This document shows positions 1,855 to 48,901 of a stretch of DNA of 48,901 nt, piece by piece; position 1 is the stretch's first letter, and each line of letters opens with the position of its first letter. A model generated the notes under the pieces. It was given only the letters and a program-made list of their open reading frames with translations. It made no database searches and was not told where the DNA came from. Origin of the DNA: a virus (Duplodnaviria; Heunggongvirae; Uroviricota; Caudoviricetes); the IMG/VR virus record IMGVR_UViG_3300045988_155985; one strand, 5' to 3'. Both the position numbers and the translations under genes were made by a program.

Positions 1855-2478
1855 ATGACAAAACATCTTAATGTGGTTTCTTTACCACTTTCTGTGTTGA
1901 TTGGTTATGAAAAGAACGCTCGCACACACTCCGTGGAGCAGGTAGATCAGATTGTTGCCAGCATACAGGAGTACGGATGGACTAATCCGATCCTGATAGA
2001 CGAGAACAACGTTGTAATTGCTGGTCATGGTCGAATTGCTGCGGCCACTCAGTTGGGGATGGATGATGTTCCCTGCATTGTTCTGGCTGGGCTAACGGAG
2101 AATCAGAAGAAGGCATATCGTCTGGCCGACAACCGTATTCCGCTGAATGCTGGTTGGGATGAAGAGTTGTTAAGCGCGGAGCTTGCAGATCTTGCGGCCG
2201 ATGATTTTGCTCTGGACTCAATTGGTTTTACTCAGCGCGAACTGGATAACTTATTGAGTGCGGCGGTCTACGATGACACAGAGGGTATGGATATCCCATT
2301 TGAGAAGGATGAGGCCAAATCAGGCGTAAAAGTTCAGTACCTGTCATTTGGAGGTCATAAAATCCCGGCAACGGATGAGGAAGCGGATCGTTTTGACTGC
2401 GCGGTGTCTCGTTATGTTGATGATAATGGCAGCTATATCGGATTTGTATCCGCATTGCTGGCTGGGGAGGTGTGCTGA
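1855..2478 (+). CDS. ParB/Srx (ParB-like nuclease) domain protein, paralog A
   Basis: IAGHGR motif and NAGWD motif typical of ParB N-terminal domain; about 55% identical by eye to the 5145-5735 product. Confidence 0.7.
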   Translation: MTKHLNVVSLPLSVLIGYEKNARTHSVEQVDQIVASIQEYGWTNPILIDENNVVIAGHGRIAAATQLGMDDVPCIVLAGLTENQKKAYRLADNRIPLNAGWDEELLSAELADLAADDFALDSIGFTQRELDNLLSAAVYDDTEGMDIPFEKDEAKSGVKVQYLSFGGHKIPATDEEADRFDCAVSRYVDDNGSYIGFVSALLAGEVC

Positions 2479-3851
2479 TGCTTCACCTGAATTACGACAT
2501 AACGCACCTACGCGGCGCGGAATATAACCCGCGTTTTATCGGTGAGGATGATCTTGCGAGGCTGGCCGAAAGCGTCAGGGAGCTGGGGCTTGTGAAGCCA
2601 TTGATAGTGCGCGGCGATTTGCTGGTGGCGGGACACCAAAGGACGAAGGCGCTACGTAAGTTGGGAATAACGCGTGCTGCGGTGTATGTGTTGCCCTGTG
2701 AAACGACGGTATACGACGAAGTTCGGTTTAACCAACTGCATAACGGAACGGATTTTGATAGCGGAGATGAGCGTTGCAGGGTGTCCGGTCTGGAAGATAA
2801 GCATGGTTTTGTTCAGGTATCGGCAAGCCAGATCTCAGGCAATATGCGCGCGAAAATGGCATATGTTCGAAAGAACATAGCGGAACTGGTTATCAAGTAT
2901 GGTCCGTGGGGTGGTTGTGTTGCTACTCAGTCTGGTGAGGTTATTCACTGTGCTCAGTATGCATTAGCAGCGAAAATGACGCGCACACCGCTAACGGTGT
3001 TTGTGATCCCTGATGTTGAGAAGGAAAAATACCAAAGTTATCTGAATAAAACTTATGGTGTATTTGAGTATTCTCATCTGGAGAAAACAACATACATCCA
3101 GACGTATGCGCAGCTTATGCGGTTGCGTAATGGTGGCAGCCTGAAATCAAACCTGTATGAGTCGTTGATCCTCCCGATCATTGCCAAGACGCCAAGAGGA
3201 ATTGATTTTGGTTCGGGGCAGGGAGACTACGCGCGAATGCTCAGGGCAAAGGGATATAACCTGCATGATCTCGAGCTTTTCCGCCGTAAGGGCGCTGGAA
3301 ACACTCTGGATAGGACCGCAACAAACCGGATGATTGATACGCTGGTGGACGACTTAAAAACGCGAGGGCGTTACGACTACGTGATTTGCGATAGCGTTTT
3401 GAACTCGGTCGATAGTGTCGAGGCTGAATGGTCCGTTCTGACGGTTCTGAAAGGCCTGTGTAAAGCTGGTGGGTCAATATTCTTTTCTGGTCGTAGCCGT
3501 GGAGAGCTGGAAACAGTCCTGAAGCAAACACAAGCGGCGAGTTCCAAAAGCCGGCTTTATTTTATTGATCATAACGGTTTTACCGCGTTGTACCGGAAGG
3601 GGCACTGGTTTTACCAGAAGTTTCACTCTGATGATGAAGTGAAGCAGTTGTGTCGTGTACATGGTTTCAGGATTAAGCGGTCAATATTCAACTGTAAGAG
3701 CTGGTATTTGCACGTCATTAACGATGATTCCCTTAGTTGGGCGAGTCTGGAGAAAGCTGTTCGTTTTGAGTTTGAGTTGCCGTTGCCTGGTGGTTCAACA
3801 ATCGGACGATCTGATGATGTGCTGGCGGCTTTCCGGCCGTTGATTAAGTAG
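2478..3851 (+). CDS. fusion protein: ParB/Srx-like N-terminal domain plus class I SAM-dependent methyltransferase-like C-terminal domain
   Basis: N-terminal VAGHQRTKAL (ParB GxxR-like); C-terminal GIDFGSGQG (motif I-like), acidic post-I, YDYVICDSVL (motif II-like); ATG 2478 overlaps upstream stop (TGATG); no DPPY/NPPY motif seen. Confidence 0.6.
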   Translation: MLHLNYDITHLRGAEYNPRFIGEDDLARLAESVRELGLVKPLIVRGDLLVAGHQRTKALRKLGITRAAVYVLPCETTVYDEVRFNQLHNGTDFDSGDERCRVSGLEDKHGFVQVSASQISGNMRAKMAYVRKNIAELVIKYGPWGGCVATQSGEVIHCAQYALAAKMTRTPLTVFVIPDVEKEKYQSYLNKTYGVFEYSHLEKTTYIQTYAQLMRLRNGGSLKSNLYESLILPIIAKTPRGIDFGSGQGDYARMLRAKGYNLHDLELFRRKGAGNTLDRTATNRMIDTLVDDLKTRGRYDYVICDSVLNSVDSVEAEWSVLTVLKGLCKAGGSIFFSGRSRGELETVLKQTQAASSKSRLYFIDHNGFTALYRKGHWFYQKFHSDDEVKQLCRVHGFRIKRSIFNCKSWYLHVINDDSLSWASLEKAVRFEFELPLPGGSTIGRSDDVLAAFRPLIK

Positions 3852-3867
3852 TCTGTAGGAGGCGCTG

Positions 3868-4587
3868 GTGGCTGACAGAATTGAGATAAAGATGGATTTT
3901 TCTTCTCAGGATATTCAACGACAACTCCAGCGCCTTGAAGAACGCGAATTGCCGTTCGCAATGGCGCTTGCGGCAACCAGAACGGCAAAGGCTTCTCAGG
4001 CTGCGATTAAGAATGAAATTAATCGGGTATTTGACAGGCCCACGCCGTGGATTCAGAACTCTACTTACGTTTTGGCCGCAAAGAAGAGTGATCCTACAGC
4101 CATTGTGTATGCTCGTGAATGGGGAGGAACGCCAGCCCCTGTAACGTTGACTCCGCAAATCGAAGGTGGCCAACGACAGTACAAACGCTCAGAAGGGGCG
4201 CTAAGGGCTGGTGGATATTTGCCTAACGGCTGGCAGCTTGCTCCTGGTCCCGGCGCAAAGCTGGACAAGTACGGGAATATTTCGCGGGGGCAATTACAGC
4301 AGGTCTTATCTGGCCTAAGAGTTCAGCGAGATGCGCATCAAAATCGCCGTCAGGGCAAGCCTACGGAGTTTTTTGTTGTTCGACCTGGTACAAGTAACCC
4401 GCTTCAACCAGGCGTCTGGCAGCGCGTTGGGCGGCGTCCTACGTTGATCCTTACGTTTATCCAGCAACCTAACTATTCGCAGCGTCTTGATTGGCATGGC
4501 GTGGCGCTGCGTGCTGGTGAGGATGCGTTTGCTGATGAAGTCACAAAGGCTATTGATGACATTCTTTCTAAGACCTTCTCTCGTTAA
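3868..4587 (+). CDS. hypothetical protein, 239 aa
   Basis: ORF track; GTG start 6 nt after AGGAGG; no motif recognised. Confidence 0.5.
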   Translation: MADRIEIKMDFSSQDIQRQLQRLEERELPFAMALAATRTAKASQAAIKNEINRVFDRPTPWIQNSTYVLAAKKSDPTAIVYAREWGGTPAPVTLTPQIEGGQRQYKRSEGALRAGGYLPNGWQLAPGPGAKLDKYGNISRGQLQQVLSGLRVQRDAHQNRRQGKPTEFFVVRPGTSNPLQPGVWQRVGRRPTLILTFIQQPNYSQRLDWHGVALRAGEDAFADEVTKAIDDILSKTFSR

Positions 4588-4779
4588 TCATCGTGTGGTT
4601 GATGGTGTTGTTATGCAGAGTGTATTCACTGTGTTCTGTAGCGTCGCTCGCTGGCTGTCTGTGGGGGAGCACGAGCATCGTTTCATCGTCCGGCAGAATT
4701 GGGTCCTTCTGGCCAAAAGCGTTGGATGCGGGTCATTCGAACCCCGATGTTCGGCTAGCTAAACGTGAAAAAAGTTAGG

Positions 4780-5144
4780 TTAAAAGTTGCGGTAAAAGAA
4801 ATTTACTCATCTCATTGAAAAATATCGGGAAAACGTGATTTTTTGCTGTATTTGTGCTGGTAAAAAGAAAGTAGAAAATTTTCTTTTAGATCATCAAGAT
4901 ACGCGCAGATCTTTAACCAATGTGATGTTGTTCTGATAAAAATCGTTATAAATCATGCAAATACATCCAATCTTTTAACCAAAACACCATCGCAAGATCC
5001 TTTTTACTTATAAAAACTTAATAAAATCAGATAATTATGCTGGTTTGTGTGATTTTTTATGAGTAAAAAGATCGTCATTTTTCTCTTTTAGTATCAATAA
5101 GTTAAACAGTTTTCTTTAACCTGTTGTGTTATGGCGGTTAAAAA
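4780..5144. promoter_or_regulatory. AT-rich non-coding region upstream of the packaging genes; candidate cos/pac and/or late promoter region
   Basis: 365 bp without credible ORF; three direct repeats TCTTT(T)AACC at about 4910, 4971 and 5113; four GATC sites. Confidence 0.3.
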
Positions 5145-5735
5145 ATGGCTCTAAAAATCGAATATTTACCAGTCGGTAAGCTGCTCAGATATGCCAAAAA
5201 TTCACGGACTCATTCAGATGAGCAAGTTGAACAGTTGGTGAACAGTATCCGTGAGTTCGGTTTCACTAATCCTGTGCTGATCGATGAAAAGAATGAACTG
5301 ATTGCGGGGCATGGTCGGCTTGCAGCAGCCGAAATTCTGGAAATGGATAAAGTTCCGGCGATTCGGTTGAGTAACCTTTCTGAAAAACAGAAGAAGGCTT
5401 ACAGGATTGCAGATAACAAGCTGGCCTTAAATGCTGGCTGGGATATGCAGCTTCTGGCCGAAGAAGTCAAAGAGTTAATGGATGATGATTTTGATATTGA
5501 TCTGCTTGGGTTTAATGATGCAGAGCTTGACGAAATGTTAAGCGATGAACAGCCGCAGGAAGAAGACGATAATTCTTCCCCTGTTGTTCAAATTAAGTAC
5601 CTGGCTATTGATAAAGAACGTATTCCCGCGACGGATATGGAAATTGCATTGTTGCTGGATGTTTATCGTCAGTACCACGACGCGCATGAAACGCATGAGG
5701 GATTTGTTCAGTATCTTGCTAATGGTTGCAAGTAA
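5145..5735 (+). CDS. ParB/Srx (ParB-like nuclease) domain protein, paralog B
   Basis: IAGHGR and NAGWD motifs; immediately upstream of TerS. Confidence 0.7.
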   Translation: MALKIEYLPVGKLLRYAKNSRTHSDEQVEQLVNSIREFGFTNPVLIDEKNELIAGHGRLAAAEILEMDKVPAIRLSNLSEKQKKAYRIADNKLALNAGWDMQLLAEEVKELMDDDFDIDLLGFNDAELDEMLSDEQPQEEDDNSSPVVQIKYLAIDKERIPATDMEIALLLDVYRQYHDAHETHEGFVQYLANGCK

Positions 5736-13994: not shown

Positions 13995-15457
13995 TGGGAT
14001 ATCGCCACGGTATTTATATATCTGAACTGGCTACATCTATAACTCCTCCAGTGCAAGTTAGTGCTGGGTTGATTGTCGCATTTGGTACGGCTCCTGTTAA
14101 TCAGTTAGAAGATCCAGCCTCAGCGGTAAATAAACCTATCATTGCTTATACATACGCAGAGGCCGTATCTAAAATAGGATATAGCACAAACTTCGAGAAA
14201 TATACTTTAAGCGAAGTAATTAAAGTCGCATTTGGAATATATGGTGTTGCGCCAGTTGTATTTATCAATGTGCTTGATCCAGCAAAGCATAAGAAAGACG
14301 TTACTGATGAGTTAGTAAAACTTTCTGGCGGGAAAGGTACGCTCTCTAACGATGGTGTCTTATATAAATCTGTTGTTGTGAAAAAAGCAGATGGTGATTC
14401 GCCTGGGTTAACGGTTGATACCGATTATGTGCTGGCGCTGGATGATAATGGCTATACGGTCATTACAGCTATTAGCGGAGGAAAAATTACCGAAAAAGAC
14501 GCTACTCTTAAGGTTAGTTATACGCATCTTGATCCCGGTGCCGTAACTAAAAATGACATTATCGGTGGTGTGGATTCCAACACTAAAGCCAATACAGGGC
14601 TTGAGTTACTGTCAGATGTGTATCCCCGCTTCAAGTTAGTTCCTGGACAAGTGATTGCACCTGGATTTAGTTCTGATAGTGAAGTTGGTCAGCTAATGGC
14701 GGCTAAAGCCGCGCTGATTAGTGAATTGTTCAAAGCAGAAGCTATAACGGATGCGCCGACCGATAAATCTACTATCAGTGATTACTCGGCTGTTCCTGAA
14801 TGGAAACAGAACAATAATCACATGGCCGCTAACCAGACAGTGTGCTGGCCGATGGTGAAACTTGGTGACAATATTTACCATCACTCAACCCATTTAGCGG
14901 CCGCAACATGCTTGCTGGATAGTCAGTATGGTGATATTCCATCACGTTCTCCGTCAAATATAAAACTACAGATGGACGGTGCTGTACGTAAAGATGGCAG
15001 TGAAGTATGGCTTAACATTAGCCAGGCAAACTACTTAAATGGACAGGGGATTGTAACAAGCCTTAATTTTGATGGTTGGAAATCATGGGGAAACCGTAAT
15101 GCTATTTATCCAACATCTACAGACCCCAAAGACGCATTTCGTGTTTGCCGACGTATGTTTAACTGGGTGGGTAATACGTTAATTCTTTCGCATTGGTCAA
15201 AAATAGACAATCCTGCAAACCGTCGATTAATTGAATCGATTGTTACAAGTGCGAATATTTGGCTTAACGGCCTCACAGGTAATCAGGATATTGCAGGTGG
15301 TGTTGTTACCTTTGATCAGTCTGAAAACACGATTACGTCATTAATGGACGGGATTGTTAAATTCCATGTAAAAATGACACCATTCTCACCTGCCAGAGAT
15401 ATTGAGTTCGTCATGGAATATAATCCTGATTATCTGCTGAACTTGTTTTCTGAATAA
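13994..15457 (+). CDS. tail sheath protein
   Basis: 487 aa immediately before tube, chaperone and tape measure; myovirus order. Confidence 0.8.
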   Translation: MGYRHGIYISELATSITPPVQVSAGLIVAFGTAPVNQLEDPASAVNKPIIAYTYAEAVSKIGYSTNFEKYTLSEVIKVAFGIYGVAPVVFINVLDPAKHKKDVTDELVKLSGGKGTLSNDGVLYKSVVVKKADGDSPGLTVDTDYVLALDDNGYTVITAISGGKITEKDATLKVSYTHLDPGAVTKNDIIGGVDSNTKANTGLELLSDVYPRFKLVPGQVIAPGFSSDSEVGQLMAAKAALISELFKAEAITDAPTDKSTISDYSAVPEWKQNNNHMAANQTVCWPMVKLGDNIYHHSTHLAAATCLLDSQYGDIPSRSPSNIKLQMDGAVRKDGSEVWLNISQANYLNGQGIVTSLNFDGWKSWGNRNAIYPTSTDPKDAFRVCRRMFNWVGNTLILSHWSKIDNPANRRLIESIVTSANIWLNGLTGNQDIAGGVVTFDQSENTITSLMDGIVKFHVKMTPFSPARDIEFVMEYNPDYLLNLFSE

Positions 15458-32280: not shown

Positions 32281-32393
32281 TATTTATATAATTATAGATT
32301 TATATAAAAAGTGCTTTACAGGTGGGAAAAAATTTCCTAAGGTTATACCCGAAACCGAGCGATACCCGCCCTGGTTAAACCGGAGATAACCCG
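32281..32393 (+). promoter_or_regulatory. promoter-operator-leader cassette, copy B
   Basis: AT-rich repeat 32281-32310; -35-like TTTACA 32315-32320; 17-bp spacer with inverted repeat GGAAA-AAA-TTTCC; -10-like TAAGGT 32338-32343; conserved 50-nt leader. Confidence 0.5.
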
Positions 32394-32774
32394 ATGAGCA
32401 TGATTAAAATCCGCAAAAACGCTTTCCTTAAAATTCAAACTATCCTGGCTGGTTCTGTTGGCGTGATTTGCCGTTCTTCCTCAAGCCGCATCGATGACGG
32501 CTACGATGATGAGTATCGTGTGTCCTCATGCGATGAGGCTTTAACCTGGCTGAAGGAGAATCAGGAACGTGCCCAGGTATATCTGGAAACAGAGAACGGC
32601 AATCAGATGCTGCGTATTAGCGGTCGTTATGGATTTGAAACTACATTCATGGCCTATTTTAATCAGGCTTACTTTGACAAGGAGTTGGCTTGGTACACTG
32701 ATCGCATGAGCAAAAGCGAGCCAGCCCCGATTACACCGCCGAACAATAAACCATTTTTATTCCTCGTTAAGTAA
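32394..32774 (+). CDS. hypothetical protein, 126 aa, first gene of cassette B
   Basis: ORF track; ATG within conserved leader context. Confidence 0.5.
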   Translation: MSMIKIRKNAFLKIQTILAGSVGVICRSSSSRIDDGYDDEYRVSSCDEALTWLKENQERAQVYLETENGNQMLRISGRYGFETTFMAYFNQAYFDKELAWYTDRMSKSEPAPITPPNNKPFLFLVK

Positions 32775-33919: not shown

Positions 33920-35065
33920 TTATGGTCTGCTTTTCTGTGCCAGCTTATCAGCACATGTTTTTATCAGATCCTGTAGTGTCCTGGCTGGCAGGTTTGCATC
34001 CAGAACGCTGAGTATGCTGTTGTGATCAGCCTGGTCGACTACTTTGCCTGTCGGTGGTAGTAGCTTGAGCTGAGGATTCAGGTTTTCGTCAAAGCTGATA
34101 AGTGCTCTGGCGTTTCTGAGCAGATCAAGAAGTAAGGCTGATATCACATTTTCCTGAGTCATTGCTGGCAGATTTAGCGCCGCTTTAGTTTTCCCTGTTG
34201 CCTTGTCAAACTCCTTGATTAGTTCCTTCCTGTAGTTCGGTTCCGTTAATAGCCGATTATGCTCTGTTGCCGCGCGGATAATCGTTTTTTCCTGGTATAG
34301 TCGTTTAGCCAGATCACGCTCGTACTGTGTTTTTAACACGCTGCTGATAGCGTTAAAGGCTTCAATGTAGGCCAGCTTGATATCTTTCACGCCTGGACCG
34401 TCGATGCTCTCCATGAGCAAGGTAAATCCGTCTTTTGTCATGCGATAGATTGTTATTTCGCGGTCGCTTCCTTCCAGCGGTCGTTGTTCTTTAAAAAAGT
34501 GACGCGCCGCAGCTGTGCGAGGAATGCGTAACGCATCGATGGCCATAACGATGGAATTGTTTGTGGTGCTGAATGCCTGGGCAACATCGGCTGAGGTTGT
34601 GAGTGGCTCGTTATTGCACACCTTAATGTAAAACATCGGTTTGGCGTTGAGCGTATCGACAACCTCACGAGCATTGTTTGGCGAGACGGTTACGGTCGCG
34701 GCCGTTTGCGCGTTCTGGTTGAAATAGCAGTCTTCCAGTTTTTCGAACACATCCCAAGCCTGATCGGTTTCAAGCATTTTGGCGTGACGTGCAGCCCCGC
34801 GTTCTGTCCAGAGGATGAGGGAGCGGACTTTAGGTGAAACTGGATTTTGTGAGTAGTTTAAAGCTACCCGCAATTCTTTAAGGTCATTACCAACAACTTT
34901 GAAAAAGTGTTTCCCTTCAACGAAACGTACTTTGTTCTCATGATGATTCTGGCGAATACGCACCGGCTCAGTGCCGTAAAGCTGTGCCAGTAACTCGGTA
35001 GTAATGACAGGGATTTGGTTATGCAGGATAGGCTGTAGGGTGTTAACGGTCGGAAGCGTTTTCAT
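33920..35065 (-). CDS. antirepressor (Ant-like) with ORF6N/Rha-like domains
   Basis: 381 aa; N-terminal VITTELLAQLYG and central ADVAQAFS segments resemble antirepressor/Rha-family domains. Confidence 0.7.
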   Translation of the reverse strand: MKTLPTVNTLQPILHNQIPVITTELLAQLYGTEPVRIRQNHHENKVRFVEGKHFFKVVGNDLKELRVALNYSQNPVSPKVRSLILWTERGAARHAKMLETDQAWDVFEKLEDCYFNQNAQTAATVTVSPNNAREVVDTLNAKPMFYIKVCNNEPLTTSADVAQAFSTTNNSIVMAIDALRIPRTAAARHFFKEQRPLEGSDREITIYRMTKDGFTLLMESIDGPGVKDIKLAYIEAFNAISSVLKTQYERDLAKRLYQEKTIIRAATEHNRLLTEPNYRKELIKEFDKATGKTKAALNLPAMTQENVISALLLDLLRNARALISFDENLNPQLKLLPPTGKVVDQADHNSILSVLDANLPARTLQDLIKTCADKLAQKSRP

Positions 35066-35253: not shown

Positions 35254-35418
35254 TGTGATGATTCCCTTAAAGGTTAAGGATACTCACCACCGTCAGGTTC
35301 CAATCATTGGGTGGTGAGACGTGCAGGGTTGGAACTACCGGACACAATGACGAACCGGCGAGTCTTACGACTCCCCCGCACGCCCCACCATAATTTGGGT
35401 GTAGCAGTGCTTTACGCA

Positions 35419-35440
35419 TAAAAAAACCGCTAACGCGGTA
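35419..35440 (-). terminator. minus-strand rho-independent terminator
   Basis: On the minus strand: hairpin ACCGCGTTAGCGGT followed by TTTTTTT. Confidence 0.5.
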
Positions 35441-35585
35441 TGCGCCATTGTGTCTACGGGGTTCCAATCCCGACCGTAGATTTTGCTACGGCTCGGAAAG
35501 TGTCCACCAATGGCGCATTCATGTCAATACGGCGGGATTTTAACAGAGACAACCACATAGCGTGGGTTTATTGGTAGGCAGAAAC

Positions 35586-35760: not shown

Positions 35761-35999
35761 AATGAAGTTTTTTAACTTCTTCGGATGTAATTACATGTAA
35801 TAAAAGCATTTGTTATTCCTTCATTATGAAGGCGAGGACGTGTAATATGGCTTGGGGCCTTTTCGCCGATTCGCACCCGGGCACCGACTTTAAGGAAAGG
35901 ATCATCCACTTGCCGTACACGCAAGCACAAGCGGTGTGCTTGCTCTCGCGTCATTTTCGTCGGTGGAGATGCCGTGAAACGGCCTGTAAGGGCCACACA

Positions 36000-36122
36000 A
36001 TGAAAAAATACTACATGTGTATTTTTATCGTTGTTACTGGAGCTTTGTTTACGCCACATGGGGAGGGTTGGAAGATTACTGATAACGCTCTGAATGTGAC
36101 GATAAACATTAGCAGCAAGTAG
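36000..36122 (+). CDS. small hydrophobic peptide, 40 aa
   Basis: MKKYYMCIFIVVTGALF N-terminus; ATG 36000; strong terminator immediately downstream. Confidence 0.3.
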   Translation: MKKYYMCIFIVVTGALFTPHGEGWKITDNALNVTINISSK

Positions 36123-36128
36123 CGATTA

Positions 36129-36150
36129 GGCCCCTTCGGGGGCCTTTTTT
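36129..36150 (+). terminator. rho-independent terminator
   Basis: Hairpin GGCCCC-TTCG-GGGGCC followed by TTTTTT. Confidence 0.6.
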
Positions 36151-36372: not shown

Positions 36373-36627
36373 TTACTTCTGGTTGTATTGAGCCTTGAGT
36401 AACTCAAAAGACTTTGTCAGCACTTCTTTCAATGACATATCCATTGAGCTGGCGAACGTTTTGTACTCGCGTTTAAATTCAGGGTCGACGTTAAACGCCA
36501 TTTGTGCCCCACCTGATTTGGTTCTGGCTGGCGTTTCAGTCGGGTCGAAAACCTGCGGTTGTTCGATCGATGGCGGTACGCCTTTGCTGTTCTTCTTTGG
36601 TGGTTTTGATGGTGCGGCCATGTGCAT
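36373..36627 (-). CDS. small partition/centromere-binding protein, ParG-like (ribbon-helix-helix)
   Basis: 84 aa downstream of parA; basic flexible N-terminus and C-terminal RHH-like segment. Confidence 0.55.
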   Translation of the reverse strand: MHMAAPSKPPKKNSKGVPPSIEQPQVFDPTETPARTKSGGAQMAFNVDPEFKREYKTFASSMDMSLKEVLTKSFELLKAQYNQK

Positions 36628-36664
36628 CCCCTCTTATATAAATCTATAAAACTATAATTATATA

Positions 36665-37341: not shown

Positions 37342-37446
37342 TTATATAATTCTATAAATCTATATTTATAGAACGAGGTAAGCATAACCAACTTTTTGGC
37401 GGATGAAAAGCGTTTTATATAATTATATAAAACTATAATCATATAA
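37342..37446. repeat. AT-rich TATAATTATA-type repeat cluster upstream of parA; candidate centromere/operator
   Basis: Two blocks (37342-37373, 37412-37446); a related block at 36632-36667 between parA and parG. Confidence 0.4.
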
Positions 37447-37935: not shown

Positions 37936-38592
37936 TCATAACCAGTTGACAACACTAACTACGCGGCCCAGAACTTTATAACGCTTAAATTCCTCGTTAT
38001 TCAGATGCTTAGTGTTCATTTCAGCATCCCTTTCGGTTGACAGCATAACAGCATTGTCACCCGGTATGACTCTACAGTGCCTCAAAACAACCAGGCCATT
38101 TCTGTCTTCAAGGGCATAGATCCCCTCATGAATCTCTGTATCGTCTGTATTAATCAGGACTTGGGAGCCAGGGGATATTGTTGGTGACATTAACTCATCG
38201 TTGCTCTGGAGAACTGACAGAGACGATGAGTTGATGTTCTTGCTTCGTAGAATCTCCTGTTCTATCGCCAGCACTGGCTTTTCTCCGGCGTGCGATGCTA
38301 TGTCATTTTTTATAGCTACAAGCCCAGGAATAACAGGAGCGTTAGTATTCTGGGGTGGGAACGGGTTATCTGTTAAGCACGCGATATAAGGCGCTGATGC
38401 TTTCAGGGCGTGCGCGATTTTCTTGATGGCAGGTATAGATGGTTGTCTTAATCCGGCCTCATAGTTCTGCAAGGTGCTTAAGCCTATTCCAGTGACTTGC
38501 TGGAGATCTCCGGCAGTCATGCCGGATTGTTTCCGTAGAGTCTGAATGCGCAGACCTATTTCTTTCTTGATGTTCTCGTCGTTGCTTTTCAT
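37936..38592 (-). CDS. prophage repressor, cI/LexA-like (N-terminal HTH, C-terminal S24 peptidase-like)
   Basis: HTH GMTAGDLQQVTGIGLSTLQNYE; C-terminal segment with Ser and Lys candidates; divergent from cro-like gene. Confidence 0.8.
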   Translation of the reverse strand: MKSNDENIKKEIGLRIQTLRKQSGMTAGDLQQVTGIGLSTLQNYEAGLRQPSIPAIKKIAHALKASAPYIACLTDNPFPPQNTNAPVIPGLVAIKNDIASHAGEKPVLAIEQEILRSKNINSSSLSVLQSNDELMSPTISPGSQVLINTDDTEIHEGIYALEDRNGLVVLRHCRVIPGDNAVMLSTERDAEMNTKHLNNEEFKRYKVLGRVVSVVNWL

Positions 38593-41116: not shown

Positions 41117-41166
41117 AAGTGTCATTTTGAGCTGTTTTGATGGTGTGTAGACATCGGTAACATCGA

Positions 41167-41285
41167 AAATCTATAAATATATAATTATAGATTTATATAA
41201 AAAGTGCTTTACAGGTGGGAAAAAATTTCCTAAGGTTATACCCGAAACCGAGCGATACCCGCCCTGGTTAAACCGGAGAAATCTG
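41167..41285 (+). promoter_or_regulatory. promoter-operator-leader cassette, copy C
   Basis: AT-rich repeat 41167-41203; TTTACA 41208-41213; spacer with GGAAA-AAA-TTTCC; TAAGGT 41231-41236; conserved leader. Confidence 0.5.
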
Positions 41286-42353
41286 ATGAATAAACAAGAA
41301 ATTATTTCTGACTGGATCAACAACCCTAACAGCCTGTTAAGCACTGATACTGGCTACCTATTACGCCATGTTAATGGTCGTATGGTCAAAAGCGATGAGC
41401 ACGAAACCTTTTTCTTTGTTGAAGACGATGGGCGCATCTATGAGGATGGTTACTCTTATGAAGCCCAAACTGGTTGTATCCCTGCGGAGCTGGTGGACGT
41501 AACAGAAGATCTGCGCAAAGCATGGCTTGAACAGCAGCAGCGCGGAGATGATTACGTAAACACCTATCAGGAACGCCAGAACGCGCGTCTTGCCCGATAT
41601 ATTGCTCGTGCAGAAAAAGCCAGAAAAGAAGGTGCGGTAGCGCATAAGCGAGCGCATGACCTGTTGGATGTGATCCCGTTAGGCCAGCCGATTTTAGTTG
41701 ACCATTATAGCGCGAAAGGCCATCGCCGCCGTTTGTCTAAAGCTGATGCGTTATTAAGAAAAGCGTTTGTTGAATGCGAAAGTAAAGCATCACACTACGA
41801 GAGCAAAGCCGCAGGTGTTGGTCGTAATGGAATTTCGTCTGATGATCCTGATGCGCTATTTAAGTTGCTTCGTAAGCTGCAAGGCTGCATGAAGTCACAC
41901 GTCAAAATGAAGGCCGCAAATAAGGCCATTCGCAAATACAAAAAAGACCAATTACAGCAGCTTTCTGCATTAATCGATCTCAGGTTTACAGAAAGCGAAG
42001 CCAAAGAGTTACTGGCCGGAGATTTCTGTGGGCGCATCGGATTCCCTTCATACGCACTGAGCAACAATAACGCCGAAATCAAACGACTACAGAGCCGTAT
42101 TAAGGAGCTTGAATCGGTCAAGTCTGTAACAGGAGCACAGCGCGAAGAATACGACGGCTTTTCTATGGAGATAGATCCAGAGGATAACCGCATCCTGTTT
42201 TATTTCCCTGGCAAACCAGAGGCAAACATTCGTTCGCTGCTTAAATCACGCGCCTTTAAGTGGAGTCCAACCCGTAATGCATGGGTTCGCAAGATTACTC
42301 CAAACGCCCTGGCTGATGCCCGATATCTAAAAGAATCGCTATTGAAAGCCTGA
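41286..42353 (+). CDS. hypothetical protein, 355 aa, first gene of cassette C
   Basis: ORF track; basic helical C-terminal half; no catalytic motif recognised. Confidence 0.5.
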   Translation: MNKQEIISDWINNPNSLLSTDTGYLLRHVNGRMVKSDEHETFFFVEDDGRIYEDGYSYEAQTGCIPAELVDVTEDLRKAWLEQQQRGDDYVNTYQERQNARLARYIARAEKARKEGAVAHKRAHDLLDVIPLGQPILVDHYSAKGHRRRLSKADALLRKAFVECESKASHYESKAAGVGRNGISSDDPDALFKLLRKLQGCMKSHVKMKAANKAIRKYKKDQLQQLSALIDLRFTESEAKELLAGDFCGRIGFPSYALSNNNAEIKRLQSRIKELESVKSVTGAQREEYDGFSMEIDPEDNRILFYFPGKPEANIRSLLKSRAFKWSPTRNAWVRKITPNALADARYLKESLLKA

Positions 42354-42363
42354 CAGTAAGCCT

Positions 42364-42390
42364 ACGGCGGGACGTCTCCCGCCGTATATA
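42364..42390 (+). terminator. hairpin/terminator after the 355-aa gene
   Basis: Perfect 9-bp stem ACGGCGGGA-CGTC-TCCCGCCGT followed by AT-rich tract. Confidence 0.4.
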
Positions 42391-42430
42391 GAATTATATA
42401 TTTATATAAATGTATAAGGACGCCTCGACA

Positions 42431-42712
42431 ATGAAACGCAAAATTATTAACCCCCAAGATGTGATTAATTTCCTGACCGATCACCCATGTTCAAAAGTGG
42501 ACGTAATCGCGGAGCACATTGGTGTGTCGCAGAACTCTATGCGTTGCAGACTGAGAAGCATGGTTGCCGAAGGACAGATAACAACCAGGAAAATAAATGG
42601 TTGCCTGTACTACTCCGCTAAACCGGAATTGCCATTTGGCATGAATCCTAACTCCATGTTGTTTAACACCTTATTAGCCAAAGTTAAGCCGTTGAGAGGG
42701 GCTGTGGCATGA
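42431..42712 (+). CDS. winged-helix DNA-binding protein
   Basis: HTH-like DVIAEHIGVSQNSMRCRLRSMVAEGQI; ATG 42431 after AAGGA (track start 42410). Confidence 0.45.
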   Translation: MKRKIINPQDVINFLTDHPCSKVDVIAEHIGVSQNSMRCRLRSMVAEGQITTRKINGCLYYSAKPELPFGMNPNSMLFNTLLAKVKPLRGAVA

Positions 42713-43074
42713 GCATCAAAACCCATACCGGAATAATCATCACCATTGATGGTGAGAAAAAAGTGAAGTTACGCGAAACGCCGACAACCTGGTGTGTTGG
42801 TCTGAAAGAAACATATCGCAAGGAAGATGGGCGCCGTTGTGGGTCGCCACTTTCCAGCCGTCGCCTCCTTTTGAGCACGATAAAACCTATCGGGCAGGTT
42901 GAGCAACCAACGACTCCGGTAACGAAGATTTCAGACAAGAGTCTGGCAAACCTGATCGCTGATGCGGACAAGGTGCTGGAGCGAAACACCCCCGTTGCAG
43001 ATGAGGAATGGTGGCAGGATTTCCGAGCCGCAATGCTAGAGCTTCAGGAACGTCGTCGGGAGGAGTTGAAGTGA
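42709..43074 (+). CDS. hypothetical protein, 121 aa
   Basis: ORF track; RBS GAGAGGGG. Confidence 0.45.
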   Translation: MSIKTHTGIIITIDGEKKVKLRETPTTWCVGLKETYRKEDGRRCGSPLSSRRLLLSTIKPIGQVEQPTTPVTKISDKSLANLIADADKVLERNTPVADEEWWQDFRAAMLELQERRREELK

Positions 43075-43262
43075 GCAAGAAAAATGCCGGATGGGTCAGG
43101 CCAATGAAGGCGAATAAACATCATTATTTTAATGAAGGTGAAGTAACCAGCATTTGCGGCCGTTGGATGTATTTTGGTGATTACCGTGAGCCAGACACTT
43201 TTGAGAGTCCTGATGATTGCGTGTCTTGTCGCCGGAAATTGAACAAGGTGGCTTCTAAATGA
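43071..43262 (+). CDS. small Cys-containing (zinc-ribbon-like) protein
   Basis: GTG 43071 after GGGAGGAG overlapping upstream stop; ICGRW...CVSC. Confidence 0.4.
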   Translation: MSKKNAGWVRPMKANKHHYFNEGEVTSICGRWMYFGDYREPDTFESPDDCVSCRRKLNKVASK

Positions 43263-43957
43263 AAGAACGTGGTGTTGTTTTTAATGACGATATGGTTAGG
43301 GCCATCCTCGAAGGAAGGAAGACGCAGACTCGCCGACCTGTAAAAAATGTCAGGGCCGATAACTGCCTGGTTATCCGTAAACCGACAAAGAAACGCAATG
43401 GTGTCTATACCCACGTTATGGATGCACCGGAACATGGTTTATGCCCGTTCGGTAACGTTGGTGATCGCATATGGGTCCGTGAAGCGTGGGCGATATTAGG
43501 CAATGAGGATGGTTGCAGTGTGGACTGGAACGACAACCTTTGTCATGGCGATGAGAAGAACGCAGCAAGGATTTATCGGGCCAGTTGCGAGCAAAAGCCT
43601 GGTGATTACGGCCTGTGGTCGATCCCCGATGATGCCGACTGGAAACCTCACACTGTGAATGAAAAGTTTGATGGCGGGTGGTGTCCATCAATTCACATGC
43701 CGCGCTGGGCTTCGCGTATTTTGCTGGAAATTACCGACGTGCGTGTGGAACGGCTGCATGACATGAGCGAGGCAGATGCTAAAGCGGAAGGCGCATCTCC
43801 GGCGACGTACAAGATTACACCGCCGGAAGCTGTTTATCGCGTTGGCTTTGGTGATATCTGGCGCGGTATTTACGGGCAAGAGAACTGGCTATCTAACCCG
43901 TGGGTATGGGTAATTGAGTTTAAGCGTATTCAGGAGGCAACCAGTGAGCAAGATTGA
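43259..43957 (+). CDS. hypothetical protein, possibly ASCH-like
   Basis: N-terminal MVRAILEGRKTQTRRP and GDRIWVREAW segments; low-confidence recall. Confidence 0.4.
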   Translation: MKERGVVFNDDMVRAILEGRKTQTRRPVKNVRADNCLVIRKPTKKRNGVYTHVMDAPEHGLCPFGNVGDRIWVREAWAILGNEDGCSVDWNDNLCHGDEKNAARIYRASCEQKPGDYGLWSIPDDADWKPHTVNEKFDGGWCPSIHMPRWASRILLEITDVRVERLHDMSEADAKAEGASPATYKITPPEAVYRVGFGDIWRGIYGQENWLSNPWVWVIEFKRIQEATSEQD

Positions 43958-44372
43958 CTATCAGGTACTGCGTGAGGCAGCAGTAGCAATTGAAACAGTA
44001 GCAACGCCTCAAAAATTGCTGGCATTTCGTATGAAAGTCACACCTCAGGTTGTGCTGGCACTACTGGATGAACGGGAAGCAGACAAAAAGCGCATTGCAG
44101 AACTGGAAGCTCGGGAAATAAAACCAGCCAAAGGTGAAGTTCTTGTCGTTGTTTCTGGTTTTACTGGTTGCGGAAAAAGCGCCATTGCCGGGGAAATAGA
44201 AATCGCGATGAAGGCTATTGGTGTACCGGTTCAGTGGACTAATGGCGATGCGGAAAAGCGCATGACAGGAGCTGACTGGCTGACAGAGATTGAGATGTAC
44301 AAACCAACAGTGCGCATCGTGGAAGTTAATGTGCCACGCGCCGCTGGCATTCGCATCAAAGGAGGTGAGTAA
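43944..44372 (+). CDS. hypothetical protein, about 142 aa
   Basis: GTG 43944 after CAGGAGG (track start 43914 is TTG). Confidence 0.4.
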   Translation: MSKIDYQVLREAAVAIETVATPQKLLAFRMKVTPQVVLALLDEREADKKRIAELEAREIKPAKGEVLVVVSGFTGCGKSAIAGEIEIAMKAIGVPVQWTNGDAEKRMTGADWLTEIEMYKPTVRIVEVNVPRAAGIRIKGGE

Positions 44373-44548
44373 TGCGTGTGGCATGTATCGGCTTGTTACC
44401 GTACCCGACTCGTTTTTGGGCTTCTGCGCTAATTGCAAAGCCACATGTCCTGATGGCTGACAACATCATCCCGGCACCAAAGCGCCGCCATACCGGTATT
44501 GCATCGGCACGACGAGCAGCAAAGAGACGCAGGAGAGCAAAACGATGA
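44372..44548 (+). CDS. small protein with very basic C-terminus, 58 aa, not in the ORF track
   Basis: ATG after AAGGAGGTGA; C-terminus RRAAKRRRRAKR; coupled to flanking genes. Confidence 0.35.
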   Translation: MRVACIGLLPYPTRFWASALIAKPHVLMADNIIPAPKRRHTGIASARRAAKRRRRAKR

Positions 44549-44733
44549 AAAACCGTAAAGCAAAGATTCTGTTAGTTCGTAGAAACGCTCCTGGCGTCTG
44601 GCAGTGGGTGAGACTCAGCAACCGACGGATGGGGTTAATGAAACATTACGGGATGATGGATTGTGGTTTTTGCAAAAAGCCCAGCGCGGCGCAAAACCGC
44701 TGGAAAAACCATTTGCGCACTAAAGGAGAGTGA
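44545..44733 (+). CDS. hypothetical protein, 62 aa
   Basis: ORF track; ATGA overlap. Confidence 0.35.
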   Translation: MKNRKAKILLVRRNAPGVWQWVRLSNRRMGLMKHYGMMDCGFCKKPSAAQNRWKNHLRTKGE

Positions 44734-44734
44734 T

Positions 44735-45250
44735 ATGGCGTTAACACACCGCGAACTCTGTCAGATTGCGTACAAGTTCCTTAAGCGCAACGGGTTCAAG
44801 GTTTGTTTTCATGACCGCTTTATAGCTGTAACCAGTACCGGAGAACAGCCAGATGCTATGGGATTCAGAAATTCAGCATCATGCCTGATAGAGGCGAAGT
44901 GTTCTCGTGCTGATTTGTTGGCAGATAGAAAAAAGCGTTTCCGTAAAAATCCCTCACTTGGCATGGGCGACTGGCGATTCTTTATTAGTGAGCCGGGAAT
45001 TATTTCAATTGAGGATTTACCACCTGGCTGGGGATTACTTCACGTTGTTAACGGAAGAGTACGGAAAGTACATGGGTGGCCCAAGGGTAATTGCTGTTGG
45101 GGTAATCCTGACGATAAGCCATTTACTGGAAATAAGCAGGTTGAATGCGATTACATGTTATCTGCATTAAGGCGCATGGAGTTGAGAGGGCACCTTAATG
45201 AAATATATGACGGTGTAATCCTTAATAAGCAAGAAGGAAACGCGGCATGA
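44735..45250 (+). CDS. putative PD-(D/E)xK-type nuclease
   Basis: ATG 44735 after AAAGGAGAG; candidate motif PDAMG ... IEAKCS. Confidence 0.4.
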   Translation: MALTHRELCQIAYKFLKRNGFKVCFHDRFIAVTSTGEQPDAMGFRNSASCLIEAKCSRADLLADRKKRFRKNPSLGMGDWRFFISEPGIISIEDLPPGWGLLHVVNGRVRKVHGWPKGNCCWGNPDDKPFTGNKQVECDYMLSALRRMELRGHLNEIYDGVILNKQEGNAA

Positions 45251-45651
45251 CCACTGTAACCGACAAAGAACTGATTAAAGAAATCAAAGAGCGCATAGGC
45301 AGCCTGGACGTGAGAGACAATATTGAGCGCCGTGCTTATGAAATTGCTCTGGCGTCGCTGGAAGCAGAGCCAGTGCTTTATATGAACCGATTTACCGGAA
45401 AGACATTCTCACTGGAAGGGCAACCAGGAGCAGATAAGGAGCCGGAAATATACGTGCCGCTATACACTGCTCCGCCAGCGCCGGTAGTGCCTGATGATGG
45501 TCGCGAACAGTTCGAAGCACTTGTCAGGTTTCATGCGGATGATAAAAACCATGAAACATTATTGCTTCGTGCTAACGAAGGGATGAATTACCAGGACCCG
45601 AATGTTGATCTGGCGTGGATATTCTGGAAGTCCAGTCGTGAACATATATAA
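45247..45651 (+). CDS. hypothetical protein, 134 aa
   Basis: ORF track; ATGA overlap. Confidence 0.45.
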   Translation: MTTVTDKELIKEIKERIGSLDVRDNIERRAYEIALASLEAEPVLYMNRFTGKTFSLEGQPGADKEPEIYVPLYTAPPAPVVPDDGREQFEALVRFHADDKNHETLLLRANEGMNYQDPNVDLAWIFWKSSREHI

Positions 45652-45993
45652 GCTGTAGTGAGAAGCCATGCGATTACGAGCAGTATTCAGATATTCAGAG
45701 CGGGTAATGAAGCACATACAACCGAAAACATGGCAGAAACTGGACTCTATGGGAGCTAAGTTGGAGAAGATTACTCAACTTAAGCAGTGGCATATCGGCG
45801 AATATTATGGAAGTCCTGGTCGGGATGTTCGGTTGGTAAAAAGTTGAACATTGATTTTTTATTGATCGATTAACCACGATGTGAAGGTTTTTTTATGGGA
45901 AAACCTTGTTTTAGGTGGTAACTGGGTGTAGTGTTTCATTTAACGTAGTAAAACTGCGTTAAGCGATTACCGCGTAATTTGTTGCTTTATGAA

Positions 45994-46024
45994 GCCCTGC
46001 CTTTTTCGGCGGGGCTTTTTTTTT
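45994..46024 (+). terminator. rho-independent terminator immediately upstream of the lysis genes
   Basis: 8-bp stem GCCCTGCC-TTTTTC-GGCGGGGC followed by T9. Confidence 0.6.
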
Positions 46025-47644: not shown

Positions 47645-47813
47645 TATATATTTCTGTAATTATATAAATATATAGTTACAACATTCTATGCGCTTTTCTC
47701 ATGAGCGCACGCATCAACCATGTTTGTCTGATATGCCGCCGCGCCCAAAAATCCTGAATTTATTGGCTGGGATTTTCGTGCGCGGCGCCACACCAGACAA
47801 ACAGATCAAATAT

Positions 47814-48197: not shown

Positions 48198-48785
48198 ATG
48201 GAGGCAATTGCATTGTTTAATCTGATTTATGCAGATCCCCCCTGGGAATACAAAGACAAGTGTAAGGATGGGAATCGTGGCGCTGGTTTTAAGTATCCAA
48301 CGATGAAAGCTGAGGATATTGCTCGTATTCCTGTCTGGCAGCTTGCTAATCCTGAATCGTGTTTGTTGGCCATGTGGTGGGTTCCGACTCAGCCAGAAGA
48401 AGCGTTGCTGGTGGTGAAAGCATGGGGATTCAGGCTGATGACCATGAAGGGCTTCACATGGAACAAATGTGGTAGCCGACAGCCAGACAAGCTGGTGATG
48501 GGGATGGGGCATATGACTCGTGCAAACAGTGAAGATTGCTTGTTTGCGGTAAAAGGCAAACTGCCGACCCGCCTTGATGCGGGGATTATTCAGTCGTTTA
48601 CATCGCCTCGTCTGGAGCATTCTCGGAAGCCTGATGTGGTCCGTGACAAGCTGGTAAAGCTGTTAGGCGATGTTCCTCGTATTGAGCTGTTTGCTCGCGG
48701 TGATTTACCTGATGGCTGGCATGGCTGGGGCAACCAGTGCAACGGAGGTATCCAGTTGCATGATGCTCTCTGGCAAATGTCATAG
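48198..48785 (+). CDS. DNA N6-adenine methyltransferase, MT-A70 family
   Basis: LIYADPPWEY (DPPW motif); 195 aa. Confidence 0.75.
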   Translation: MEAIALFNLIYADPPWEYKDKCKDGNRGAGFKYPTMKAEDIARIPVWQLANPESCLLAMWWVPTQPEEALLVVKAWGFRLMTMKGFTWNKCGSRQPDKLVMGMGHMTRANSEDCLFAVKGKLPTRLDAGIIQSFTSPRLEHSRKPDVVRDKLVKLLGDVPRIELFARGDLPDGWHGWGNQCNGGIQLHDALWQMS

Positions 48786-48901
48786 AATTATATAATTATA
48801 GATTTATATAAAAAATGCTTTACAGGTGGGAAAAAATTTCCTAAGGTTATACCCGAAACCGAGCGATACCCGCCCTGGTTAAACCGGAGATAACCCGATG
48901 A
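48786..48901 (+). promoter_or_regulatory. promoter-operator-leader cassette, copy D (same physical copy as window start on the circle)
   Basis: AT-rich repeat 48786-48815; TTTACA 48819-48824; spacer with GGAAA-AAA-TTTCC; TAAGGT 48842-48847; leader continues as 1-55. Confidence 0.5.

Follow-up and report, generated by a model that had tools for sequence, protein, structure and literature searches.

Positions 41286-45651 of a 48,901-base window, the whole stretch recorded as the Caudoviricetes virus IMGVR_UViG_3300045988_155985, carry an accessory block of ten open reading frames (ORFs), all on the + strand and tightly coupled from ORF2 on. The block is built of two layers, a conserved head made of ORF1-3 and a hypervariable tail made of ORF4-10, and stands directly behind one of three copies of a promoter/leader cassette. 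The reading that we favour, with a probability of roughly 60%, is that the block is accessory, its head fixed and its tail exchangeable, and that it is driven by the cassette promoter and devoted to DNA-directed functions in establishment and host takeover. The window itself is a complete circular, circularly permuted phage-plasmid genome of ~49 kb: its first and last 55 bases are identical (1-55 = 48847-48901), and it is thus a circular genome with an assembly overlap.

Under the favoured reading, transcription would run rightward from the cassette copy in front of ORF1 (copy C) and stop before a strong terminator ahead of the lysis genes. The block would be dispensable both for making virions and for maintaining the plasmid, and would supply nucleic-acid-directed functions at entry or induction, that is, during establishment and host takeover. 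ORF1, a DUF3560 protein, would act on the incoming DNA or on a threatening host factor, ORF9 would cut DNA, and the Ea22-type gene ORF6 would bias the lysis-lysogeny decision. At the repeat arrays that accompany the cassette, a single DNA-binding protein, for which ORF2 and a ribbon-helix-helix-like (RHH-like) partner of ParA are the candidates, would switch this block together with the other two cassette-headed blocks.

A conserved head and an exchangeable tail

The two layers are evident in the DNA itself. Identity to five relatives (L001-L005) stays at ~99% from 40001 to 43075-43079, the end of ORF3, then breaks at 43079, 43260, 43951, 44523 and 45261, breakpoints that coincide with gene borders, and resumes between 45475 and 45675. 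The right edge of the variable tail is marked by a 59-aa ORF just outside the block (45668-45847, + strand; phrog_9594, 3e-45), which is conserved in the phage-plasmid family. A relative from Klebsiella aerogenes, L088, keeps the order of DUF3560 gene, winged helix-turn-helix (wHTH) gene for a 93-aa protein, small ORFs, Ea22 genes and lysis genes. One relative is without ORF4-10, and in others their place is taken by different genes of the ASCH-like, Ea22-like or DUF7446 type. At least 80% of the tail is found in none of the 624 matching plasmids, and across 80 viral loci the neighbours of ORF9 vary, while ORF7-ORF8-ORF9 are frequently found together.

All ten ORFs match PHROG families over most or all of their length (E from 1e-30 to 1e-232), the families having no assigned function, and eight of the ten products have a pI of 9-12. 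Every ORF listed in the original prediction is present on the + strand, at or close to where it had been placed. That prediction had all the genes joined by overlapping start and stop codons, which holds from ORF2 to ORF10, where neighbours overlap or abut (ATGA at ORF2/3, ORF4/5, ORF7/8 and ORF9/10; GTGA at ORF3/4; a 14-nt overlap at ORF5/6; TAATG at ORF6/7; TGAtATG at ORF8/9), and fails between ORF1 and ORF2, which are separated by 77 nt. In searches with profile hidden Markov models (HMMs), a check proposed with the original prediction, no ORF matched a characterised housekeeping phage function, and the accessory-block reading therefore stands.

Genes of the ORF5-10 set occur at 95-98% DNA identity in Stx and other lambdoid prophages and also in P1-like elements, and TL-2011c carries the homologues of ORF5-10 between exo/ssb and xis/int. 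Sequence comparison indicates that the tail genes are exchanged one at a time with the lambdoid/Stx exo-xis region and with P1-like phage-plasmids. As an accessory region the block is mosaic in the way typical of temperate phages, and its families are already catalogued, though uncharacterised. With the exo-xis or 'ea' region (ea22, ea8.5 and orf60a/61/63/73 in lambda) it shares the Ead/Ea22 domain through ORF6, and in both, small genes of mostly unknown function are closely packed and highly mosaic. The two differ in place and in content: the exo-xis genes belong to the pL operon next to int/xis, whereas the block follows the early rightward operon and directly precedes the lysis genes; the DUF3560 gene and the repeated promoter cassette that head the block are both lacking in lambdoid phages; and the Walker-A-like C-terminal domain of ORF6 is unlike that of lambda Ea22 (PMC10834534). 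The exo-xis genes rank with the earliest to be transcribed, and lysogeny is the outcome that Ea22 favours (PMC10834534, PMC7093339).

The block had been labelled nin-like, and it does resemble the nin region of lambda as a set of small, overlapping, non-essential genes with recombination-type functions, with Ref and DUF1064 genes directly upstream here. The analogy is nevertheless the wrong one, as the lambdoid homologues lie between exo/ssb and xis/int, on the other arm, and no match to a Nin family was found among the ten ORFs in Pfam or PHROG. In lambda, nin is situated between the replication genes and Q. What was right in the original prediction is the idea of a pool of small early accessory genes, and the hypervariable accessory regions of temperate phages are a repeated source of anti-defence and host-takeover genes.

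The extreme turnover of the tail is also what would be expected of largely neutral or selfish cargo that persists through easy recombination at conserved gene borders and mostly brings no measurable benefit. The exact combination of genes is present in none of the 624 plasmid records, the relative devoid of ORF4-10 can be counted in favour of this view, and so can the frameshifted copies annotated in the close relative L002 (NZ_AP022814.1), where the equivalents of ORF9 and ORF10 at 14033-14775 are given as pseudogenes, frameshifted or partial; evidently the plasmid can persist while tail genes decay. Yet the large families to which the tail genes belong keep reading frame and motifs at 37-70% identity, the catalytic residues of ORF9 are invariant, and ORF1-3 and the regulatory elements are strongly conserved, so that we consider neutrality very improbable as an account of the block.

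The proteins of the block

The first and largest gene, ORF1 (41286-42353, + strand), encodes the 355-aa protein that had been listed as an unknown and that Pfam places in DUF3560. The profile PF12083 matches residues 94-216 over its positions 2-124 of 124, at 107.2 bits against a cut-off of 27.2 bits (7.7e-31), phrog_6744 matches at 1e-232, and the orthologues are named 'DUF3560 domain-containing protein' by PGAP. The protein begins with a family-specific beta domain (residues 1-90); a helical core follows, in which the loops GQPILVxHxS and ISSDDPDA are invariant, and the C-terminal part is an alpha/beta domain with the motif F.F.GKP...LK..AFKWSP..W. Its AlphaFold2 (AF2) model has a pLDDT of 90. 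The widespread form of DUF3560, of ~265 aa, corresponds to residues ~90-355 of ORF1, while the beta domain is confined in the alignment to Enterobacterales homologues of ~350-360 aa. ORF1 is present in all relatives examined, the copy in L088 being 70% identical at the protein level.

It is the company kept by DUF3560 that points to a role in establishment. Among 681 homologues of ORF1, some are fused to ArdC-N (PF08401), one of these being labelled 'Antirestriction protein', and one is fused to LPD29/LPD30 (PF18850/PF18847). A tblastn search of PLSDB with ORF1 matched 432 plasmids, 232 of them conjugative. The IncW plasmid R7K carries, in order, an ArdC metalloprotease gene, two small genes, the DUF3560 gene and the gene for the single-stranded DNA-binding protein (SSB), and in Dickeya an LPD29 gene lies directly next to the DUF3560 gene, beside genes for ParA, KorB and KorA. 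A gene list of pO157 puts DUF3560 with antirestriction, methylase and SSB genes (PMC11125564), and DUF3560 has been reported on ~1,000 plasmids and as a target of CRISPR spacers in Klebsiella chromosomes (PMC6965323). Iyer and colleagues have proposed that LPD domains, also those that stand alone, facilitate the early phase of invasion (PMC5512222). Five papers were found to mention DUF3560, none of them a functional study.

The leading or establishment regions of conjugative plasmids (ardC to ssb in the IncW plasmids R7K and R388; the F-like pO157) thus share the DUF3560 family with the block, and in both cases tightly repressed accessory genes belong to a plasmid replicon. In R388 the promoters of ardC, orf7 and ssb are repressed by ArdK and StbA (PMC3937220), and orf7 is, judging from its position, probably the DUF3560 gene. 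The parallel has its bounds. Genes for ArdC, SSB, PsiB and ArdA/KlcA do not accompany ORF1, and ORF1 itself has neither of the Pfam domains of ArdC, the ssDNA-binding ArdC-N (PF08401) or the C-terminal zincin metalloprotease. Conjugative plasmids enter as a single strand by conjugation, whereas the present element is injected by a phage as double-stranded DNA, and ORF1 carries the extra beta domain at residues 1-90. From this context we infer that ORF1 acts in establishment.

ORF9 (44735-45250, + strand; 171 aa) had been proposed as a PD-(D/E)xK nuclease, a proposal borne out by both its motif and its predicted fold. Residues E37 and D40 (GEQPD) and E53 and K55 (IExK) are invariant in 31 homologues of 59-87% identity. 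The predicted fold has the restriction-endonuclease-like alpha-beta-beta-beta-alpha-beta core, its nearest solved structure is SPO1766 (3DNX), and the two share the motif D..G...IE.K.SR.DF.AD; the sequence profile of ORF9 also ranks 3DNX first in the PDB, as a weak match (E = 0.18). The family is large, with 3,323 cluster representatives at E <= 0.001, and has a conserved C-terminal extension, GWGLL...NKQ.ECDY..SALRRM; the 323 homologues collected are all unnamed and free of Pfam domains, except for N-terminal fusions in a few. We take 3DNX to represent the MmcB-like/DUF1052 Pfam family. ORF9, however, gave no Pfam match at E <= 1, including PF06319/DUF1052, ten distant members of its family gave no match to PF06319 at E <= 0.01, and the PHROG 'DNA repair protein' family phrog_5429 was matched at only 0.0032. 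Since the link through distant family members failed and the similarity is structural only, ORF9 is not filed as a member of the MmcB family; the model makes it a PD-(D/E)xK protein of an undescribed, Pfam-less family with an MmcB-like fold. MmcB, described as a PD-(D/E)xK endonuclease with a protective role against mitomycin C in Caulobacter (PMC9578287), is the product of a chromosomal SOS gene, whereas the ORF9 family is carried by phages and has the additional C-terminal extension. The active site of ORF9 is intact, and nuclease activity is predicted.

Taken together, ORF1, ORF2 and ORF9 might also be read as a module for lytic replication and recombination, in which the DUF3560 protein would assist replication or the primase, the nuclease would carry out recombination or resolution and the wHTH protein would bind the origin, the whole complementing the RepA-dependent replication of the plasmid state. 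The C-terminal half of ORF1 does match a PHROG labelled 'primase' (phrog_19458, 2e-37), ORF9 resembles a DNA-repair nuclease fold, recombination-type genes (Ref and DUF1064) lie directly upstream, and the early operon offers no other evident module for lytic replication. But Pfam and NCBIfam detect no primase, helicase or polymerase domain in ORF1, nor does its model show such a fold, and close relatives, 98-99% identical elsewhere, lack ORF4-10 or have other genes in their place, the nuclease included, so that ORF4-10 cannot be essential for replication. A replication module is accordingly improbable in our judgement.

The remaining two genes of the head are smaller. ORF2 (42431-42712, + strand; 93 aa, alternative start 42410), placed just after a repeat array at 42394-42417, had been called a winged-helix protein, which is supported by a match to phrog_1687 'MarR family' at 5e-32. 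Its matches to Pfam wHTH families are weak and all below cut-off (FaeA 16.9, HTH_24 15.1 and TrmB 13.9 bits). Matches in the PDB, to NolR (E = 0.21, over the recognition helix and wing) and also to GntR, are weak too. An identical protein, WP_000823235.1, is annotated in L002-L005. ORF2 is a candidate regulator, with DNA binding predicted from sequence. ORF3 (42709-43074, + strand; 121 aa, basic; phrog_7520, 8e-82), the last gene of the family-conserved head, has no assigned function, and its N- and C-terminal halves match separate PHROGs.

In the tail, ORF4 (43071-43262, + strand; phrog_2358, 6e-30) is a small Cys/His protein of 63 aa, most likely started at the GTG at 43071, which overlaps the stop of ORF3, as its homologues begin MSKK.GW.RP; the ATG at 43104 would give 52 aa. 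One unspecified ORF of the block had been described as a zinc-ribbon-like peptide. If ORF4 was meant, the description has some merit, for an HH pair, one further C and one CxxC (HH...C...CxxC) are kept in 11 homologous loci, and ORF4 is a possible zinc binder; it has no second CxxC and no match to a Pfam zinc ribbon. If ORF8 was meant, the description falls, because the CxxC of ORF8 is not conserved and a zinc-binding role was rejected for it.

ORF5 (43259-43957, + strand; 232 aa; phrog_874, 2e-88) is a putative ASCH-like protein of the PUA type with a large insertion. Its score against Pfam ASCH (PF04266) is 15 bits, below the cut-off of 21.2 bits, and phmmer matched the ASCH domain of human ASC-1 (E = 0.0075 over 33 residues); the family profile matched nothing in the PDB. 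The family is very large, and the names given to its members vary, 'morphogenetic protein' for some and, by PGAP, 'ASCH domain-containing' for others.

ORF6 (43944-44372, + strand; ~142 aa; phrog_250 and phrog_11761), which most likely starts at the GTG at 43944 behind AGGAGG, joins an Ead/Ea22-type N-terminal module to a short C-terminal domain. The Ead_Ea22 profile (PF13935) matches at 39.8 bits against a cut-off of 27 bits (8e-10; residues 12-67 of a 152-aa reading). The C-terminal domain of ~80 aa has a Walker-A-like GFTGCGKS, a motif with weak, sub-cut-off P-loop matches to FtsY, Cdc6 and APS kinase. ORF6 is absent from L001-L005. In some Salmonella proteins (P0091, P0093 and P0102) the Ead/Ea22 N-terminal module is fused to an ORF9-type nuclease domain. 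Its occurrence both on such nucleases and on the Walker-A domain of ORF6 suggests a portable N-terminal adaptor for varied effector domains.

ORF7 (44372-44548, + strand; phrog_13831, 2e-41), a 58-aa protein with a pI of 12 and an Arg-rich C-terminal tail, had been noticed as an ORF with such a tail and belongs to a real family: a homologue of 58% identity keeps the frame, diverged homologues keep IPAPKRRHTGI, and the gene is annotated in TL-2011c as F366_gp07. ORF8 (44545-44733, + strand; 62 aa, basic; phrog_1380, 5e-40) has conserved ends (MKNRKAK... and ...SAAQNRWKNHLRTKGE) around a variable middle, and its homologues, 37-71% identical, keep the frame with in-frame indels. Two diverged copies of ORF8 stand in tandem in some prophages, and in phrog_9263 (230 aa) ORF8 and ORF9 are fused end to end. 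Here the two lie in different frames and are split by TGAtATG (44545-45250); the loci touching the fusion and the tandem copies are L009, L021, L016 and other viral loci. ORF10 (45247-45651, + strand; 134 aa, acidic; phrog_660, 3e-30) has no assigned function, and the mosaic junction at 45261 falls within it. Several other PHROGs match only its residues 1-43, the N-terminal ~45 aa being common to proteins of the ea region, and it has no Pfam match. PDB sequence searches with ORF1, ORF2, ORF5, ORF6 and ORF10 gave marginal matches only.

Cassette, repeat arrays and the timing of expression

The original prediction had placed the block behind a repeated cassette, and three copies of a 114-nt promoter/leader cassette are indeed found in the window, at 32284-32397, 41177-41290 (copy C, + strand) and 48788-48901 (copy B). 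Every copy consists of AT-rich 8-bp repeats that overlap TATAAT, a conserved leader of ~85 nt, GGAG and then ATG, and terminates in the ATG of the first gene of its block, for copy C that of ORF1. The -10 TATAAT of copy C lies at 41180-41185, within a promoter-like GTAACA-17-TATAAT at 41157-41185. Among 50,697 phage records the cassette occurs only in three Yersinia phages. It is ~90% identical in L088 (7900-8003 and 16700-16813), where the neighbouring proteins are ~70% identical; within the L088 stretch compared, the cassettes occupy the same two positions. Both L088 copies share variants, which suggests strong constraint, concerted evolution or evolution in step with a factor acting in trans. 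That the leader forms a structured RNA of the put or nut kind was considered and dropped, as the fold is no better than that of shuffled sequences (z = -0.9) and there is no Rfam match there.

The AT-rich repeats extend beyond the cassettes. The pattern TTATATANNTATATAA, with up to 2 mismatches allowed, has 15 matches against 0.22 expected, distributed over eight sites with an 8-bp phase: three in the cassettes, three around ParA, one before a tRNA and one in the gap between ORF1 and ORF2. The arrays, of the TTATATAA type, lie at 32284-32307, 36634-36649, 37342-37357, 37415-37438, 41169-41200, 42394-42417, 47652-47675 and 48780-48811. The array in the gap (42394-42417, + strand) belongs to the same repeat family as the cassette, contains the palindrome TTATATAtTTATATAA, lies 14 nt upstream of the ORF2 ATG and is identical in L088. 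Directly after ORF1, the same gap holds a conserved GC-rich hairpin (42363-42386, + strand; minimum free energy -23.8 kcal/mol for 42350-42432, z = -3.1), whose stem is kept in L088 and whose loop differs there; a weak terminator is one possible role for it, a processing or stability element another. With hairpin and array between them, ORF1 may be a transcription unit apart from ORF2-10, and the stretch may comprise two transcription units and not one operon.

Next to ParA, downstream, an 84-aa gene at 36373-36627 (- strand) encodes a protein whose C-terminal sequence is ribbon-helix-helix-like, as in ParG, with no Pfam match. From its sequence, this partner of ParA looks like an RHH protein, and as a partition protein it might double as a global repressor of the cassette promoters.

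The borders of the block bear on when it is expressed. Upstream, a rightward early operon ends with genes for a Ref-family nuclease, a DUF1064 protein and a 125-aa protein of unknown family; the block comes after this operon and before the lysis genes, the first of which is a holin. The idea of the 125-aa protein as a Q antiterminator is unsupported, as it has no Pfam match, matches only a PHROG of unknown function and shows no detectable similarity to Q. Downstream, a strong intrinsic terminator (45991-46018, + strand; an 11-bp stem, 7 of its pairs GC, with a T run behind it) lies 20 nt upstream of the holin ATG (46038). The segment 45864-46023 (+ strand), which ends in this terminator and is ~98% conserved among relatives, has a sub-threshold match to the Rfam model of GcvB (34.7 bits against a gathering score of 42 bits; E = 1.7e-4 in 19 kb) that spans the whole model, with a G/U-rich stretch aligned to the GcvB seed region. 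Several other small RNA models match the same terminator, and the score may come largely from it.

With a promoter-like site upstream and a strong terminator downstream, both of them consensus matches only, the block has the classic layout of a moron, a unit defined by its own promoter and terminator and by expression from the resident prophage. As a late-expressed moron it would be transcribed with the lysis and morphogenesis genes, or constitutively from the resident plasmid, and would serve lysogenic conversion, superinfection exclusion or the defence of the host against other phages. In Stx phages the stx genes and other cargo are located between Q and the lysis genes, and the present block likewise consists of accessory genes just upstream of a holin, between the end of the early operon and the holins, with an adjoining terminator and a tRNA nearby. 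An identical cassette heads the terminase/structural operon, and the nuclease and the P-loop-like protein could be exclusion effectors. On the other hand, no Q homologue was detected, the 125-aa upstream protein included, and no toxin or virulence genes are present; the content is that of early-region genes and not of late-promoter cargo, the relatives of ORF1 are located in plasmid establishment regions, and PADLOC defence models match none of the ten proteins. Late expression as a moron is, in our estimate, distinctly unlikely, and expression at entry or induction is what we infer for the block.

Several observations weigh against an establishment block all the same. One copy of the cassette also heads the long operon leading to the terminase, packaging and structural genes, and the block sits just before the lysis genes, both of which would fit late expression; the promoter and the terminator were called by consensus matches only. 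The DUF3560 link to ArdC and SSB is positional only and any role of DUF3560 in plasmids is itself putative, the predicted fold of ORF1 has no informative solved relative, and the ASCH assignment of ORF5 and the zinc-binding assignment of ORF4 are weak. Moreover, no known anti-restriction or anti-defence Pfam family or PADLOC model is matched by any block protein: a PADLOC-DB scan of the ten gave a marginal SoFic match for ORF2 (E = 0.006, 13.9 bits) and no other, and NCBIfam yielded nothing above cut-off and no anti-restriction family. The suggestion that such a region hides anti-defence or recombination functions is supported by context only, namely DUF3560 beside ardC and ssb and the intact site of ORF9.

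The phage-plasmid and the wider role of DUF3560

The element has no integrase and maintains a plasmid state instead. It encodes an IncFII-family RepA, ParA and a CI-like HTH/S24 repressor (37936-38592). Its nearest relatives are circular, non-mobilizable plasmids of ~48 kb in E. coli, including one in strain ATCC 25922, and in E. albertii, E. fergusonii and Klebsiella aerogenes; three Yersinia phages, vB_YpM_39, 41 and 44, are likewise close relatives. The annotated relative NZ_AP022814.1 encodes RepA, a ParA family protein, a lambda-type head module, a P2-type contractile tail and an invertase, and further a RelE/ParE toxin-antitoxin pair and an MT-A70 methyltransferase. RepA and ParA, the lambda-type head, the P2-type tail, a set of RNAs with an antirepressor and the occurrence of both plasmid and phage relatives together identify a phage-plasmid. 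The pSLy3 group of phage-plasmids is part of a different supergroup (SSU5), and a small 32-kb plasmid that shares the cassette was uninformative, being derived from the same element by deletion. No description of the present phage-plasmid family was found in the literature, and nothing on vB_YpM_39.

The RNAs lie at 35307-35505 (- strand) and 35853-36150 (+ strand), where C4 antisense RNA (77.8 bits), isrK (67.7) and ryfA (138) all exceed their Rfam gathering thresholds, and they adjoin an ORF6N-domain antirepressor gene (33920-35065, - strand); the combination suggests P1-type immI control beside the CI-like repressor. Cassette B (48788-48901 and on into 1-55) and its downstream gene span the ends of the window. 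At 48198-48785 and 1855-5735, after cassette B and an MT-A70 methyltransferase gene, three genes with a ParB/Srx domain, along with several unknowns, precede the terminase, and this region is a second accessory block with a DNA-modification flavour.

A bolder scheme, which we put forward as speculation and consider unlikely in its entirety, would make DUF3560 an uncharacterised establishment or anti-defence factor of conjugative plasmids and phage-plasmids alike, installed as the fixed first gene of the block. A single repeat-binding protein, ORF2 or the RHH partner of ParA, would switch the three cassette-headed operons, so that the partition and regulatory machinery of the plasmid state silences the accessory and lytic operons of the phage. 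The tail would then be a rotating counter-defence arsenal drawn from the lambdoid exo-xis pool, the Pfam-less PD-(D/E)xK family included.

If no gene of the block affected infection or establishment, the stretch would merely be another example of phage mosaicism. The near-identical relatives that differ only in their tail genes are valuable in this regard, as gene-by-gene phenotypes could be read directly from them, and ORF9 introduces a large nuclease-fold family that has no Pfam model. The most useful new point is the link that DUF3560 draws between phage-plasmids and the establishment regions of conjugative plasmids. Given its presence in hundreds of conjugative plasmids and in a widespread family of ~48-kb E. 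coli phage-plasmids, one protein may serve the establishment of DNA in both routes of transfer.

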